From NCBI GenBank assembly GCA_942493105.1, contig OW818668.1, forward strand, positions 2,000,408-2,032,407: 32,000 bases of DNA. Reading direction: 5' to 3'. Origin of the DNA: an uncultured Erysipelotrichaceae bacterium (GTDB lineage: Bacteria > Bacillota_I > Bacilli_A > Erysipelotrichales > Erysipelotrichaceae). Made by a program: the position numbers and the translations under genes. Each line of letters starts with the position of its first letter. Position 1 is the first letter of the stretch. Of this stretch, positions 12,862 to 32,000 are shown piece by piece. The notes beneath the pieces are model-generated. The model was not told the DNA's origin. It made no database searches and worked only from the letters and a program-made list of their open reading frames with translations.

Positions 12862-12937
12862 TGGTGGTTCCGGCCGGAATTGAACCGGCGACACCTTGAT
12901 TTTCAGTCAAGTGCTCTACCTACTGAGCTACAGAACC
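12862..12937 (-). tRNA. tRNA-Phe (GAA), CCA encoded
   Basis: Cloverleaf read by hand. Anticodon loop CUGAAAA, T-loop GGTTCAATTCC, acceptor GGTTCTG/CGGAACC. Confidence 0.9.
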
Positions 12938-12938
12938 A

Positions 12939-13015
<77 letters not shown>

Positions 13016-13041
13016 ATAAGGAAATGAACTGGCAATTAAAA

Positions 13042-13118
<77 letters not shown>

Positions 13119-13149
13119 ATAAATAAGTAACCAAAACTTCGAGTAAAGA

Positions 13150-13238
13150 TGGCGGAGGAAGTGGGATTCGAACCCACGCATGCTTTCACATCTGCTGGTT
13201 TTCAAGACCAGTCCCTTAAACCGCTTGGGTATTCCTCC
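13150..13238 (-). tRNA. tRNA-Ser (UGA), long variable arm
   Basis: Anticodon loop CUUGAAA, long extra arm, discriminator G, CCA encoded. Confidence 0.9.
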
Positions 13239-13249
13239 ATTGTTAGAAA

Positions 13250-13326
<77 letters not shown>

Positions 13327-13331
13327 ACATT

Positions 13332-13408
13332 TGGTAGCGGGAGTCGGATTCGAACCGACGACCGACCGGGTATGAACCGATTGCTCTAGCCAACTGAGCT
13401 ATCCCGCC
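13332..13408 (-). tRNA. Elongator tRNA-Met (CAU)
   Basis: Anticodon loop UUCAUAC. Acceptor GGCGGGA/TCCCGCT fully paired, so it is not an initiator. Confidence 0.85.
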
Positions 13409-13421
13409 ACAAATTTTAAAC

Positions 13422-13498
13422 TGGTCGGGATGACAGGATTTGAACCTGCGACCCCTTGATCCCAAATCAAGTGCACTACCAAGCTGTGCTACATCCCG
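13422..13498 (-). tRNA. tRNA-Pro (UGG)
   Basis: Anticodon loop UUUGGGA, 5' CGGGATG acceptor. Confidence 0.9.
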
Positions 13499-13517
13499 AT
13501 GTATGATGGTAATAAAA

Positions 13518-13594
13518 TGGCGCGCCCAGCAGGAGTCGAACCCGCAACCCTTTGATCCGTAGTCAAATACTCTATCCAATTGAGCTATGGGCGC
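13518..13594 (-). tRNA. tRNA-Arg (ACG)
   Basis: Anticodon loop CUACGGA. Confidence 0.9.
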
Positions 13595-13626
13595 AATGTG
13601 GTGCTTGGACAACACAAGTGCAAACG

Positions 13627-13713
13627 TGGTGGGGATGAAGGGACTTGAACCCTTACGATGTTGCCATCAACGGATTTTAAGTCCGTTGCGTCTGCCTATT
13701 CCGCCACATCCCC
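13627..13713 (-). tRNA. tRNA-Leu (UAA), long variable arm
   Basis: Anticodon loop CUUAAAA, long extra arm. Confidence 0.9.
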
Positions 13714-13716
13714 AAT

Positions 13717-13790
13717 TGGAGGTTCCTGTCGGAATCGAACCGACGGTCACAGAGTTGCAGTCTATTGCCTTACCACTTGGCTAAGGAACC
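13717..13790 (-). tRNA. tRNA-Cys (GCA)
   Basis: Anticodon loop CUGCAAC. Discriminator U73, typical of tRNA-Cys. Confidence 0.9.
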
Positions 13791-26936: not shown

Positions 26937-26968
26937 AATAAAGGTGATTCAAATGAATCACCTTTTCT
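26937..26968. terminator. Bidirectional terminator between fba and the convergent small ORF
   Basis: AAGGTGATTC-AAAT-GAATCACCTT flanked by A- and T-runs. Confidence 0.8.
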
Positions 26969-26969
26969 T

Positions 26970-27161
26970 TTATTTCTTTTTAGGATCAACTTCAACTAAG
27001 TCTTGTGCTAAATCGTCTAACAGAATTCCATAATCCGCATGCGGTTCTTGGATGTGACCTTCAGGTAAAGGCACACCATCTGTTAGAGGTTGCCCATAGA
27101 TTCGAATCTCATCCAATGTTTTCGGGCTTGATTTCTTTTTAGGTTGTTTTGGTTTATTCAT
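26970..27161 (-). CDS. 63-aa hypothetical protein with Lys-rich termini and an acidic core
   Basis: Strong RBS AAGGAG 7 nt upstream, its own promoter and its own terminator. No family recognised. Confidence 0.55.
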   Translation of the reverse strand: MNKPKQPKKKSSPKTLDEIRIYGQPLTDGVPLPEGHIQEPHADYGILLDDLAQDLVEVDPKKK

Positions 27162-27283: not shown

Positions 27284-27361
27284 TGGGGCGACCGACGGGG
27301 CTCGAACCCGCGAGTGTCGGAGCCACAATCCGATGCGTTAACCAACTTCGCCACGACCGCC
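27284..27361 (-). tRNA. tRNA-His (GUG) with encoded G-1 and CCA
   Basis: Anticodon loop UUGUGGC. An extra 5' G sits opposite the C73 discriminator. Confidence 0.85.
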
Positions 27362-28198: not shown

Positions 28199-28221
28199 AG
28201 AAAAACCGGGTTTTACCGGTT
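28199..28221 (-). terminator. Terminator of the Tad-like operon
   Basis: Minus strand AACCGG-TAAAAC-CCGGTT followed by TTTCTT. It overlaps the stop codon of the TadE-like gene. Confidence 0.5.
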
Positions 28222-28551
28222 CATCGGCCGTGTGATCAATTGAATCATCGCGGACTTTTCATAATTAAGCAAAGGAATGCTTAACGGATAACTAACTTTG
28301 ATAGAATAACGCTTGGTCAGTTCATCTTGAGTGATGGTAGAAGAACAGAAACTGCATTGAATAGGATGATTTTGAATCAACAACGCAACAGATTCGTCAT
28401 AACGATTTTGATGTTCAATAAGCGCTAAAATCGTTTCTCCAAAAAGTCTGGCTTGATTCTGTGATAAGATCACTTGCGTAAAACTCATGCCCAAGATCAC
28501 AAACATCATACCAAACAGAAAGACCATACCTAATTCAAATGCCCCTTTCAT
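28213..28551 (-). CDS. TadE-like minor pilin / pseudopilin
   Basis: 112 aa. N-terminus MKGAFELGMVFLFGMMFVILG has a short charged start, a Glu, then a hydrophobic helix. Its ATG overlaps the stop of the flp-like ORF (TAATG). Located downstream of tadC-flp. Confidence 0.5.
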   Translation of the reverse strand: MKGAFELGMVFLFGMMFVILGMSFTQVILSQNQARLFGETILALIEHQNRYDESVALLIQNHPIQCSFCSSTITQDELTKRYSIKVSYPLSIPLLNYEKSAMIQLITRPMNR

Positions 28552-28697
28552 TAGCTGTTAGAGGTCATTTGAGCCCACTGCGCCGATAAAGTTTCCTGCA
28601 TCGTTGTTTTAAATCCTTCTGAGAATACAATCATTCCAGTTGCGATCACGGTTACGACCAATACCAATCCATACTCTTCAAAAAATGCTTTCATCAT
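28551..28697 (-). CDS. flp: Flp-family pilin candidate (47-48 aa), absent from the supplied ORF track
   Basis: Hand translation: MMKAFFEEYGLVLVVTVIATGMIVFSEGFKTTMQETLSAQWAQMTSNS. EYGL followed by about 20 hydrophobic residues is the Flp core. GGAGGTGAG directly upstream contains the tadC stop codon TGA. Either of the two tandem ATGs (28697 or 28694) may be used. Confidence 0.65.
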   Translation of the reverse strand: MMKAFFEEYGLVLVVTVIATGMIVFSEGFKTTMQETLSAQWAQMTSNS

Positions 28698-28698
28698 C

Positions 28699-29454
28699 TC
28701 ACCTCCTTTCAAACATCGTCATCAAGACACTCATCATGGCACTTAGGAAAACCAAAGTCACTCCAATTAACGGGATCATCCCTAACCATTGGCTGATCAT
28801 CAATTGCTTTTGTTTGGCATATTGACGTTCTTGCCTTAGCCACTTGGAAGTCGATGCAATCATTCGATTAAACTGTCTTGAGGCATCTTGTTGGCCTGTG
28901 TTTTCAAATCTATACAACCACTTCATGGCTCTTTGAATCTCAGAAAGCTCCAATCGGCTCATAAACGCTGTATATGAGCTCAATCTTCCAGGTTGCGAGA
29001 GTAATCTCTGATGCAGTAACTTGAGTTCTGAACGAAGATACAAAGGTGCTTGAGGGATCGAACACTCTATAGCTTTGATGACCGTATTGTTTTGAAGCAA
29101 GATTTGAAGCTGTCTCAAATAAATCGGAAACTGATAGCGGATCAGATCAGACTGTCGTTTGACTTCAGATTTCAAAGAGAACCAAGGGCTGACATAGATC
29201 AATAAGATCAAGCTAATAAACAACAGATCAAATTGAATTGAATTGACCCAGACTAAGGTAATCATCCAAGCCCAACGAACTTGATGACTTCGTCTATACC
29301 TCCTTCTTTGCCACAAACTGGGGTTTTCCTTTTCTAAAATCCAAAAATAATGAATAAGTTTAGCATCTGATAAACGACTGATCCAAGGTTCCAAAATAGG
29401 ATCAAGGGCAATCCAACTCAAGAGAATGATCCAATGAAGAACTATATTTTCCAT
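28699..29454 (-). CDS. tadC: TadC-like platform protein (T2SS-F domain)
   Basis: N-terminal TM helices, a cytoplasmic helical T2SSF-like region (IRYQFPIYLRQLQILLQNNTVIKAIE ... EIQRAMKWLYRFENTG) and a C-terminal TM pair. Confidence 0.6.
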   Translation of the reverse strand: MENIVLHWIILLSWIALDPILEPWISRLSDAKLIHYFWILEKENPSLWQRRRYRRSHQVRWAWMITLVWVNSIQFDLLFISLILLIYVSPWFSLKSEVKRQSDLIRYQFPIYLRQLQILLQNNTVIKAIECSIPQAPLYLRSELKLLHQRLLSQPGRLSSYTAFMSRLELSEIQRAMKWLYRFENTGQQDASRQFNRMIASTSKWLRQERQYAKQKQLMISQWLGMIPLIGVTLVFLSAMMSVLMTMFERR

Positions 29455-30248
29455 ATTTCCTCACGTTCTTCGATCCATCGCTTAGATAGTAGATTTTGAA
29501 CTACAGCAATCGTAATCTGAATCATCAACATAAAGATCAGTAATGCCATATCCGTTAAGTTCATTTGAGCTTGTAAGCCTGTTTTCTTGAGCATGGATTG
29601 ACTGAAATAAGCAATGAACAAGGCAAAGATACTTAAGAGAATAATGCGGTTTCTTTGTTGTTTCTCCATTTGTTTGAACAGTAAAGTATCTTCGGCCCAT
29701 TCTTCAATATCATCTTGAATGATATCTAAACTTAAACCATAATCATGCGTTCCAAATAATTCGACTGCGACCATCAAATGAATCAAATTCCCAATGACAA
29801 AATGAGGATATGATTTTAGAAAAAACAACGCCGAATGATTTAGATCTTTACCTTGTTCAAGATCATTGATCCAAGCTAGAACCGATTCTTTAAGCTTACC
29901 TTTGATCAGATCTTGACTCTCGGTAAAACTGAAGTAGATCTTAGGATGATGTTTAAACAGAGCCAGAACTTGTTGAAAAAAATCAATCATCATATAGAAA
30001 TCTGTTTCTTGTCTTTTATAGATCTCTTCAGTAATGGAAAACCAGATCCCTAATCCAAATGCACTGGTCATGATGATAAGTTGATTGATGATACCTAGAC
30101 CTAATAAGTATCCAAGAATATAAAAAACAAAAACCGACACTAGTCCAAACAGACCGTGTTGAGTCAACCAGATCCAGCGTCTAGGTTTCACGATGGATAC
30201 CTTTATTCGGCAATTCATCAAAACTAAGCTCTGGATTCTTCTCATCAT
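29442..30248 (-). CDS. tadB: TadB-like platform protein (T2SS-F domain)
   Basis: Same architecture as tadC. The start is uncertain: the track ATG overlaps tadA by 68 nt, and an in-frame GTG at 30191 would overlap by 11 nt. Confidence 0.55.
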   Translation of the reverse strand: MMRRIQSLVLMNCRIKVSIVKPRRWIWLTQHGLFGLVSVFVFYILGYLLGLGIINQLIIMTSAFGLGIWFSITEEIYKRQETDFYMMIDFFQQVLALFKHHPKIYFSFTESQDLIKGKLKESVLAWINDLEQGKDLNHSALFFLKSYPHFVIGNLIHLMVAVELFGTHDYGLSLDIIQDDIEEWAEDTLLFKQMEKQQRNRIILLSIFALFIAYFSQSMLKKTGLQAQMNLTDMALLIFMLMIQITIAVVQNLLSKRWIEEREEIWKI

Positions 30249-31170
30249 CTTTATAAATCAAGATCGTCTTGGGTTTAAAATGTTCATCCAAGTGATAGTA
30301 CACTAATTCTCTGATTTTCCTTCGTATGCCTTTGGATGAGCTTTGAATTTCAATATGAAGCCCAAAATCAAGTGTGGAATGAACAAGAGCCAATAGATTG
30401 GTGTTTGTGACATCCACTTCAGGCATCATATGCATTAAACGCTGAGGAATCGCACTGGCATTTTCCGCATGAACCGTACTTAAGACACTGGCTCCTGTCG
30501 AACAGCTTTGAATCAGTTGCATGACTTCCCTACCTCTGACTTCAGACACACATATCCAATCCGGTCTTTGTCTTAAGGCTGCTTTTATAGCAGCCTCATA
30601 ATCAAATAAAGGGCTGATTTTGATCATTACGTGATCTTTATGCGGATGAATCTCACCATAGCGCAACTCTAGGCTATCTTCGATCGTTATGACACGCTGA
30701 TAAGCTGGAATACTTTTCATCAGATACTTTACCAATTCTGTTTTACCGCTGCCAGGCAAACCACTGATCAAGATATTTGATCGAGCTTTGATGGCATCCT
30801 TAAGTAACTCGATGACCCATGCAGGTGCATAATTCTTCATCATCAGATCACTGATTCTTAATAACGCTGGTGTCTTACGGATTGAAATGCTTAAGCCACT
30901 GCGACAAACACTCTGATGAAGCATACTAATGCGCAATTCTTTGGTTTCGGCTTCTAGGATAGGCGAACTGATATTGAAAGGCAAATTGACATAATTTGCG
31001 ATCTTATAAGCAAAGGCCTGCATAAACTCATGCGCAGTAAATGGTTCAATCGGATATCTTCCTTTTTCTAGATGATCGACCCAACACTGTTTACCGTTAT
31101 AGTTGATGTCGGTTATTTGATCATCTCTAACCCAAGGGCTTAATATCCCAAAATCAAAGTCATCGTTCAT
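30181..31170 (-). CDS. tadA: TadA/CpaF-type secretion ATPase (VirB11-like)
   Basis: Walker A GLPGSGKTE, Asp box ITIEDSLEL, Walker B RQRPDWICVSEVRG, His box LSTVHAEN. At 329 aa it is short for CpaF. Confidence 0.8.
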   Translation of the reverse strand: MNDDFDFGILSPWVRDDQITDINYNGKQCWVDHLEKGRYPIEPFTAHEFMQAFAYKIANYVNLPFNISSPILEAETKELRISMLHQSVCRSGLSISIRKTPALLRISDLMMKNYAPAWVIELLKDAIKARSNILISGLPGSGKTELVKYLMKSIPAYQRVITIEDSLELRYGEIHPHKDHVMIKISPLFDYEAAIKAALRQRPDWICVSEVRGREVMQLIQSCSTGASVLSTVHAENASAIPQRLMHMMPEVDVTNTNLLALVHSTLDFGLHIEIQSSSKGIRRKIRELVYYHLDEHFKPKTILIYKDDEKNPELSFDELPNKGIHRET

Positions 31171-31858
31171 GAAGCACCTTGATCAACGCAGTACCTTCAA
31201 TCAAAATACTTTCTTGGTCTGCATTTTGACCAGAACTTGGAGTTATGATGAGATCCCCCAATTCAATGGCTTTGGTCAAGAGTGATACTTGATCTTGATT
31301 GAGTGCAATCAACATCAACTTAGGATAATCTGTTGCCTTTTCAAGTTCTTTTCCATTTTTATCTTTAAGACTTAATATTCTAACATTACTGATCAATCGA
31401 TCCACGACTGTCAATCGATTGTGTAAGATTGAAATATACAGATCAACTTTTTGATAGGGTTGCAGTGTATTTCCTGAGGTCATTTTTAAATCGACATCCA
31501 ACGCATAGACCACTTGGTTATCCAACAATAAAAGACTTGGGGAATCCTTAGCCTCTTGGATGGATTCAACCATTGAATCATAGATAAAACTACCCTGTGG
31601 GATCTGTGATCGAATCAGTGTGTATTTGCCGATTAGATCTTTGATATCTAGTACGATAGAGGTTTGCAGATAAGCTTTGGGAACCTTGATCATCACGATG
31701 TCTTTTTCACTGATCAATGTCCTGGGTTGTAGCACATTGGCAGCTATAGGTACATCCACCAGGTCTAAGCGTTGATCGACATAAATCTTTGATCCCAAAT
31801 ATGCAATACCGCAAAGTGCTGCTGCCAATAAACCCAATATGATTCTATTCGATTTCAT
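31160..31858 (-). CDS. cpaB: CpaB/RcpC-like Flp pilus assembly protein
   Basis: N-terminal TM anchor. SAF-like segment (VPIAANVLQPRTLISEKDI) and RcpC-like C-terminal region. Overlaps tadA by 11 nt. Confidence 0.6.
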   Translation of the reverse strand: MKSNRIILGLLAAALCGIAYLGSKIYVDQRLDLVDVPIAANVLQPRTLISEKDIVMIKVPKAYLQTSIVLDIKDLIGKYTLIRSQIPQGSFIYDSMVESIQEAKDSPSLLLLDNQVVYALDVDLKMTSGNTLQPYQKVDLYISILHNRLTVVDRLISNVRILSLKDKNGKELEKATDYPKLMLIALNQDQVSLLTKAIELGDLIITPSSGQNADQESILIEGTALIKVLHER

Positions 31859-32000
31859 GTTCTACCTCGATCATGGTTTCTTCTGCTTTTAAATTCAACT
31901 CAAAAAGCGATCCTATATCTGTCGCTTCGATTCTAATCCTTAATGCGAGCGGATCTGAAATAAAACCCATCAGATCGATTTTATAGATGACTGATTTTTG
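31845..32000 (-). CDS. 3' end (51 codons) of an unidentified gene running off the right edge; first visible gene of the Tad-like operon
   Basis: Open frame from nt 32000 to TAG at 31845-31847 (..QKSVIYKIDLMGFISDPLALRIRIEATDIGSLFELNLKAEETMIEVEHEIE). It overlaps the cpaB start by 14 nt. It was too short and partial to appear in the ORF track. Confidence 0.4.
   Translation of the reverse strand, partial: QKSVIYKIDLMGFISDPLALRIRIEATDIGSLFELNLKAEETMIEVEHEIE

Follow-up and report, generated by a model that had tools for sequence, protein, structure and literature searches.

A 47-codon gene in a Tad-like operon of Erysipelotrichaceae encodes a putative leaderless pilin-like protein

The window analysed here is a stretch of 32,000 nucleotides from an uncultured Erysipelotrichaceae bacterium (GenBank assembly GCA_942493105.1, contig OW818668.1, positions 2,000,408 to 2,032,407), and it carries on its minus strand a seven-gene operon with the genes of a Tad-like machine. 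In a gap of 147 bases between the gene of a TadC-like membrane protein and a 112-codon gene, this strand encodes a small, Flp-like and apparently leaderless pilin-like protein of 47 residues, MKAFFEEYGLVLVVTVIATGMIVFSEGFKTTMQETLSAQWAQMTSNS (28551..28694). The sequence of this frame, its homologs, the ratio of nonsynonymous to synonymous differences (pN/pS), a conserved Shine-Dalgarno (SD) sequence and start, and a helix model of the product were considered together. From the conservation of the sequence we regard it as practically certain that the frame is a real, translated gene, and we favour, with reserve, the reading that the operon builds a divergent Tad-like (type IVc-like) filament of which its product is the major subunit.

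An open frame of 47 codons in a 147-base gap is not improbable by chance alone, and it is its conservation that shows a gene. Homologs of the small peptide formed 108 clusters (clustering at 90% identity), were 66-98% identical and, where correctly called, had 47-52 residues, and in a scan with one genome per species the gene was present in 93 genomes. Among the 80 loci fetched, every title that named a taxon below the phylum was from Erysipelotrichia, and the carriers include Erysipelothrix tonsillarum, E. inopinata, E. urinaevulpis, Traorella, Massilicoli and Copranaerobaculum. When 82 distinct DNA versions were compared, no indel was found in the 43-codon core; pS was 0.76 and pN 0.19, with a median pN/pS of 0.25 in the coding frame, and the two shifted frames gave 1.2 and 2.1. 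The entropy was 1.40 at third positions and 0.38-0.54 at positions 1 and 2, and in the first 24 codons, where the protein is nearly invariant, it was 1.33 at third positions versus 0.27 and 0.08 at positions 1 and 2. The third, synonymous positions are near saturation and the small gene is under strong purifying selection; with a mean identity of 70% its product is the best conserved of the operon (ATPase 52%, other operon proteins 29-37%). The proposal of the earlier note that the minus strand of the gap holds a gene is thereby borne out. A chance frame in an intergenic spacer, in favour of which the modest length and the lack of any hidden Markov model (HMM) naming the product could be quoted, is already refuted by this pattern, and by the SD, start and stop overlap that are all kept, so that its probability is practically nil.

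The upstream gene of 251 codons (28699-29454) ends in AGG AGG TGA at 28699, and the sequence AAAGGAGGTGA (28699..28709, minus strand, read from 28709 to 28699) is for this reason an extended SD of the small gene whose last three nucleotides are the upstream stop codon. At the other end, the TAA of the small gene (28553-28551) and the ATG of the 112-codon gene overlap by one A to give TAATG. Both features, a GGAGG ribosome-binding site containing the upstream stop codon and the TAATG overlap, had been described in the earlier note and are present. Two ATG codons follow the GGAGG, the first (28697) after 4 nucleotides and the second (28694) after 7 nucleotides. If the first, alternative ATG were used, the translation of 28551-28697 would be MMKAFFEEYGLVLVVTVIATGMIVFSEGFKTTMQETLSAQWAQMTSNS, of 48 residues. 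In 79 related loci, the codon that precedes the invariant Lys was ATG in 64, TTG in 5, ATA in 5, GTG in 4 and CTG in 1, i.e. it was start-capable (table 11) in 79 of 79 and no other codon was seen; in addition, the reading frame is closed in several loci by a stop codon that lies one to three codons before this position. Because the codon before Lys is always start-capable and these stops lie upstream, the protein is read as M-K-A-F-F-E-E-Y-G-L..., and the second ATG is taken as the conserved start of a 47-residue product beginning with MK. The frame had thus been read correctly as one of 47-48 codons, but the first ATG is not the conserved start.

Upstream in-frame starts (a TTG at 28712 and the GTG that gives "MDAIK" forms) were also considered and rejected, as they lie inside or against the SD and are excluded by the in-frame stops of several loci; database forms such as "MDAIK..." or "VLLSRYLKGGE..." reflect the choice by gene callers of a GTG or TTG in that place. 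In five loci (L053, L057, L073 of E. tonsillarum, L077 and L078) ATA replaces ATG at the normal SD distance, and CTG stands in the ATG position in locus L076; since these codons occupy the usual start position at the usual SD distance, initiation at rare start codons is implied. In these loci the gene callers choose instead a GTG embedded in the SD. Across the related loci AAAGGRGG is kept as the SD at the same spacing, and the overlap of the stop with the next start is kept as TAATG, TGATG or ATGA. With both of its neighbours the small gene is translationally coupled; this coupling, an SD of such strength and a position like that of flp are in keeping with a structural product made in many copies. 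An Rfam search of the region around the small gene matched no RNA family.

The small protein has, as the earlier note described, the sequence EYGL followed by a hydrophobic helical stretch, here of about 16-20 residues. In the family, E6, E7 and G9 are invariant and Y8 nearly so, the hydrophobic part reads LVLVVT.IA.GMI.F, and the amphipathic C-terminal third has invariant F28, K29 and W40. The AlphaFold2 (AF2) model, built from 46 sequences, is one helix from residue 2 to 45 with a predicted local distance difference test score (pLDDT) of 91; the protein is therefore modelled as a single long helix in which M-K-A-F-F-E-E-Y-G precedes the hydrophobic segment. After MK the small protein has 45 residues, the length also of the mature Caulobacter Tad pilin (PilA, 8u1k), which starts with ATAIEYGLIV... 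and has its EYGL at positions 5-8. When a broadened family profile was compared with 177,635 PDB sequences, 8u1k was the top match (E = 0.036), with E7-Y8-G9-L10 of the small protein on E5-Y6-G7-L8 of PilA, and a second Tad pilin, 8u2b, ranked fifth (E = 0.31); the narrow family profile found neither of these pilins, nor any other, among the PDB sequences.

The operon context points in the same direction. In about 80 loci the gene order is the same, i.e. a membrane protein of about 120 residues, a CpaB-like protein, an ATPase, two T2SSF-like paralogs, the small gene and a protein of about 110 residues. Like the Flp/Fap pilins (PF04964; Caulobacter PilA 8u1k, Aggregatibacter Flp1), the small protein would be a tiny, all-helical subunit with E-Y-G-L before a hydrophobic helix, and its companions in the operon are a TadA-branch ATPase, a putative TadB/TadC-like pair and a CpaB/RcpC-like protein. 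Unlike them, it has neither a leader of about 14-25 residues nor a Gly at -1, it carries two adjacent Glu residues and, in its C-terminal part, a Trp that is invariant, and no tadV is found in or near the locus and no tadZ/cpaE. It likewise resembles the Flp1_like (PF16982) or "Flp-like" pilins of Imam et al. 2011 (PMC3244431) in being a small protein of a Gram-positive tad-like operon, whereas in those pilins a cleavable signal ends in Gly (-1) and Tyr is missing from +6, and the small protein keeps the Tyr and has no leader. The name Flp-type pilin, given in the earlier note, therefore stands only in part: the EYG motif, the helix, the length, the Tad-like operon and PilA as the top PDB match agree with it, but the family HMMs, the Gly-ended leader and a linked TadV are wanting, so that we do not count the protein as a member of the Flp family.

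The next gene (28213..28551, minus strand), whose start overlaps the stop of the small gene, encodes a pilin-like protein of 112 residues (MKGAFE...) that shows the same kind of start. In this family M1 and E6 are invariant and K2 nearly so, which gives a leaderless M-K-x-x-hydrophobic-E N-terminus, and the model (pLDDT 86) consists of a helix from residue 2 to 48 (47 residues), a short helix and a three-stranded sheet, a "lollipop" of pilin-like outline. The earlier note had named this gene TadE-like, a label that the HMM search did not support: none of 24 orthologs matched the TadE family (PF07811), and DUF4320 was matched weakly by 9 of the 24 (best E = 0.0068). When the small and the 112-residue families were aligned with hhalign they were in register from residue 1, with a probability of just 31%, which is not significant. 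The 112-residue product would probably be a minor, second or tip subunit.

An exhaustive profile search of 1.8 billion representatives gave just 17 proteins at E <= 1e-3, and 16 of these were small proteins with an MK[ATSIM]-x-x-EE-[YM]-G start, a few of them called with upstream extensions; the seventeenth (P0117) was discarded as an unrelated repetitive protein. With a broadened alignment, the best 120 of 310 matches were all close relatives. The distant relatives start with MK[ASI]F/SxEE[YM]G, and several of them match Flp1_like weakly (E 0.001-0.01, over nearly the whole model, but well under its gathering score) or Flp_Fap (E 0.014-0.08; 13-16 bits). All five distant members with genomic context adjoin an ATPase resembling the N-terminus of the window ATPase, and the ATPases of loci L085 and L089 are 42-43% identical to it. 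Furthermore, the distant loci contain sets of proteins of 36-258 residues that all start with M-[KRQ]-x-x-x-[ET]-E-[YN]-G, and in one of them neighbours of 136 and 61 residues have the common N-terminus VKSFLEEYG/MKSFLEEYG. This arrangement, with one N-terminal module placed before many different C-terminal bodies, is the one found in sets of major and minor pilins. These relatives, at L085 4112-5191, L088 8365-10204 and L089 7069-12117, lie on metagenomic contigs outside the Erysipelotrichaceae set; the contigs are Firmicutes-like and possibly mobile. They also hold fused platform-sized proteins of about 505-545 residues, and near the three systems there are genes for Flg_new surface proteins of very great size and for resolvase, SSB or HU; these systems may ride on mobile elements. 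No PF01478 match was found among the called genes of the distant-relative loci. We put forward, as a tentative proposal that is open to doubt, that all these systems form a distinct clade of Tad-like filament systems, core in Erysipelotrichaceae, in which every pilin is leaderless, with an M-K/R-x-x-x-E start at the usual mature N-terminus, and in which there is no prepilin peptidase.

If the small protein is the filament subunit, it would be inserted in the membrane with its Met-Lys on the cytoplasmic side and with the hydrophobic helix spanning the bilayer, so that the amphipathic C-terminal third (F28, K29, W40) would face out and form the surface of the fibre. The ATPase and the TadB/TadC-like pair would extract the subunits and stack them into a helical fibre, in which Glu6/7 would act as Glu5 does in pilins, neutralising the neighbouring N-terminus or Lys2. 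Cleavage of a leader would probably not be needed or, at most, one to three residues would be removed by an enzyme encoded elsewhere.

Several points weigh against a filament subunit. Filament formation is a prediction drawn from sequence and models, and the very high conservation of the small protein would also suit a machine component that stays in the membrane. The match to 8u1k is borderline, and hydrophobic helices align easily; BLASTP of the small protein against Caulobacter PilA gave no match, and Foldseek gave none with the single-helix model. With the 112-residue model, Foldseek found no significant pilin or other fold match in the PDB, only insignificant matches to ribosomal proteins. 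The Flp/Fap search likewise brought no member to the cut-off: Flp_Fap (gathering 32.2 bits) did not match the window protein at E <= 1 and matched one of 46 family members (E = 0.034), and Flp1_like (gathering 33.5 bits) also matched one of the 46 (E = 0.014), both far under the cut-off. The review of type IV pilins consulted (PMC10191384) offers no precedent for a subunit in which -1 is Lys or Met, and the absence of a peptidase from the locus could merely mean that its gene lies elsewhere in the genome.

The alternative that survives best, although we consider it unlikely, is that the small protein is a non-polymerised single-pass membrane component, such as an assembly or anchoring factor, and that the filament, if any, is made of the 112-residue lollipop-like protein. 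A component of this kind would require neither a leader nor a peptidase, conservation above the level of the ATPase points to core machinery more than to an exposed subunit of a filament, and the pilin-like helix-plus-sheet model of the 112-residue protein suits the role left to it; besides, TadE-like structural subunits have been proposed by Imam et al. for some Gram-positive tad loci (PMC3244431). Conservation does not separate the two readings, because it fits equally a subunit that is nearly all packing surface, as Tad pilins almost entirely are, and a component that is not polymerised. Against this alternative stand the EEYG, the hydrophobic helix and the length, which match those of Tad pilins, the N-terminal module that in related loci heads proteins of many sizes, as in sets of pilins, and the position of the gene, which is that of flp in tad operons and comes with the strongest SD, as would suit a high-copy product.

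The second alternative concerns the leader. In canonical Flp prepilins the leader, at least a dozen residues long, has Gly as its last residue, and TadV cleaves between it and XXXXEY (PMC3244431); according to a review, the last residue of type IV pilin leaders is "invariably" Gly or Ala and processing comes before assembly, and PilFind and IPR012902 rely on this Gly/Ala cleavage signature (PMC10191384). No leader ending in Gly (G/XXXXEY) was found in the small protein, in which the start is M-K and residue -1 would be Lys or Met. It might still be an ordinary Flp prepilin with a very short leader, MK or MKA, that is cut by a TadV/ComC-type peptidase encoded elsewhere and becomes a standard Flp pilin, a case to which we give little probability. 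A cut after K2 would leave AFFEEYGL..., i.e. an exact XXXXEY, which fits only when counted from Ala3 and is aligned with E5-Y6 of PilA, but -1 would then be the invariant Lys, neither Gly nor Ala. A cut after A3, counting from Phe4, would give a leader that ends in Ala, and the 112-residue neighbour would have the leader MKG; however, position 3 is not constrained like a cleavage site, since it varies among A, T, S, I and M in the small family and among G, A, S, Q and L in the 112-residue family. With these cuts Glu falls at +4/+5 or +3/+4 of the small protein and at +4 or +3 of its neighbour, and removal of Met alone is the sole register that gives Glu at +5 in both.

As to the enzyme, prepilin peptidases can act in trans from elsewhere in the genome, as in MSH loci (PMC6668835), and possible sources exist in these bacteria: Erysipelotrichales carry comG loci (PMC12786226), and a canonical tad locus, ERH_0825, stands apart in the genome of E. 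rhusiopathiae (PMC4968806). We considered whether the E. rhusiopathiae locus or the tad locus of Bulleidia (PMC12786226) might be the one described here and rejected both, as they are different, canonical loci. However, no GxGDxK-type A24 (TadV-type) motif was found in the open reading frames (ORFs) of at least 120 residues of the window or of 87 loci with flanks of up to 8-10 kb, and an ordinary Flp pilin would also be expected to match the Flp HMMs.

In other respects the small protein resembles the type IV pilins at large (class III signal peptide, IPR012902), with an N-terminal hydrophobic helix, a conserved Glu a few residues in, and an N-terminal module shared within a locus by proteins with differing C-terminal parts, as well as a neighbour with a lollipop model; unlike theirs, its leader would be reduced to the initiator Met, or to MK or MKA, and no A24 peptidase is linked to it. 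In the type IV pilins and archaellins of archaea, class III leaders can be very short, and the best solved relatives of the window ATPase are the archaeal GspE2 and FlaI. By FlaFind-type motifs, a cut after position 3 would make the site similar to archaeal ones, with Lys at -2 and a small residue at -1. Nevertheless, position 3 of the small family goes beyond Gly, Ala and Ser, the host is bacterial and no FlaK/PibD-type peptidase was seen nearby. That the small protein is truly unprocessed and its assembly independent of a peptidase is a possibility that we advance, short of even confidence. In the literature that could be searched on leaderless or peptidase-independent pilins, on DUF4320 and on Tad/Flp in Erysipelotrichaceae, we found no description of this locus or of leaderless pilins.

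A third alternative, an unrelated small hydrophobic peptide (a toxin, a bacteriocin or a peptide like the phenol-soluble modulins, PSM) that stands in the operon by chance, or a fragment of DUF1697, is very improbable. The product is small and hydrophobic, 45 of 46 members match DUF1697 weakly (E about 0.002-0.004) and there was one PSMbeta match; however, the DUF1697 match reaches 18 bits versus a cut-off of 24.4 and covers 38 positions of a soluble domain of 137. In addition, the gene keeps its place and its translational coupling in about 80 genomes, its relatives are found together with ATPases of the same clade on unrelated contigs, and genes for immunity or export were not seen. When the small peptide was scanned with Pfam and NCBIfam there was no Flp match and solely this sub-threshold, spurious DUF1697 match, which we judge to be a chance resemblance of the hydrophobic segment. 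The gene is not new: the earlier note had taken it to be unlisted and missed by gene callers, whereas public gene calls contain it, as "hypothetical protein" at NCBI and, at JGI, as "Flp pilus assembly pilin Flp" in a few clusters and as "DUF1697 family" in many. The JGI name "uncharacterized protein (DUF1697 family)" is explained by this reproducible sub-threshold Pfam match, and the label (PF08002) is likely a propagated misannotation.

The operon as a whole is bounded by rnf genes and coaX, a housekeeping neighbourhood, and it appears to be vertically inherited in Erysipelotrichaceae; its architecture is of the Tad type, but lacks tadV, tadZ and a secretin. The first gene is cut by the edge of the window, so that only its 3' end (31845..32000, minus strand) is seen; it would encode a protein of about 110-130 residues with one N-terminal membrane helix, and its C-terminus in the window, ...EETMIEVEHEIE, matches a 127-residue protein of locus L005. 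This gene precedes the CpaB-like gene in most loci (e.g., L005 4467-4850 and L068 4511-4843). The protein has no Glu near its start and no Pfam match, and a similar protein of 128 residues precedes the ATPase in L085. The second gene (31160..31858, minus strand) encodes a CpaB/RcpC-like protein of 232 residues with SAF and RcpC domains, which matches TIGR03177 (pilus_cpaB, 6.4e-13, below the cut-off) and Pfam RcpC (4.4e-4); its E. inopinata ortholog reaches 34.1 bits with RcpC versus a cut-off of 28.8, and the RcpC/CpaB-family member of Tad systems is present in the operon.

The third gene (30181..31170, minus strand) encodes a secretion ATPase of 329 residues of the TadA/CpaF-FlaI-VirB11 branch. 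It matches T2SSE (1.2e-30) and, both under the equivalog cut-offs, the TadA-family TIGR03819 (2.3e-34) and VirB11 (3.4e-35), and its solved relatives in the PDB are archaeal GspE2 (5e-22), FlaI (5e-17), VirB11 (2e-16) and CpaF (2.5e-16), as expected for the TadA/CpaF-type ATPase of a Tad system. Two genes for polytopic membrane proteins follow. The TadB-like platform protein of about 258-268 residues (29442..30248, minus strand) has a start that is uncertain by about 10 codons; its longest ORF (29442-30248) overlaps the 3' end of the ATPase gene (30181-31170) by 68 nucleotides, and in near-identical contigs (e.g., L082) it is called 10 codons further downstream, with 258 residues. T2SSF was matched by 7 of 24 orthologs (best 2.2e-6), with no match for the window copy. 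For the TadC-like protein of 251 residues (28699..29454, minus strand) T2SSF was also matched by 7 of 24 orthologs (best E = 4e-4), and the window copy gave only 0.024. When the two families were compared by hhalign the probability was 90% (E = 1.5e-6), and on this comparison the two proteins appear to be a paralogous, T2SSF-like pair. Before coaX, a terminator-like hairpin followed by a T-run (28203..28222, minus strand) overlaps the stop of the 112-codon gene and is likely the end of the operon.

Elsewhere in the window, ten tRNA genes form a tight array (12865-13790, minus strand), and a single tRNA gene (27287-27360, minus strand) lies between coaX and a 63-codon ORF. This ORF (26970-27161, minus strand; MNKPKQPKKKSSPK...) had no Pfam match, and between it and a class II aldolase gene on the plus strand there is an 11-bp hairpin (26940-26965), perfectly paired and with a T-run on each strand, that looks like a bidirectional terminator.

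Type IV pilins are defined by the cleavage of the prepilin by its peptidase after Gly or Ala, a step that is taken to be universal. If the leaderless clade is real, the type IV filament superfamily would lose one of the four components considered common to all its members, and a class III signal peptide could no longer serve, as the rule has it, to define a type IV pilin. A conserved Tad-like operon whose candidate subunits all begin with Met-Lys, and to which no peptidase is linked, would be an instance of such a filament assembled from subunits that are not processed. Imam et al. noted tad-like loci of Gram-positive bacteria in which no prepilin could be recognised (PMC3244431), and leaderless subunits would explain why such loci look "pilin-less" in motif-based searches. 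The recurrent "DUF1697 family" misannotation of the small gene would be corrected as well, and the missing subunit would be supplied for a machine that is core to the Erysipelotrichaceae, a family that includes both the animal pathogen genus Erysipelothrix and gut commensals.

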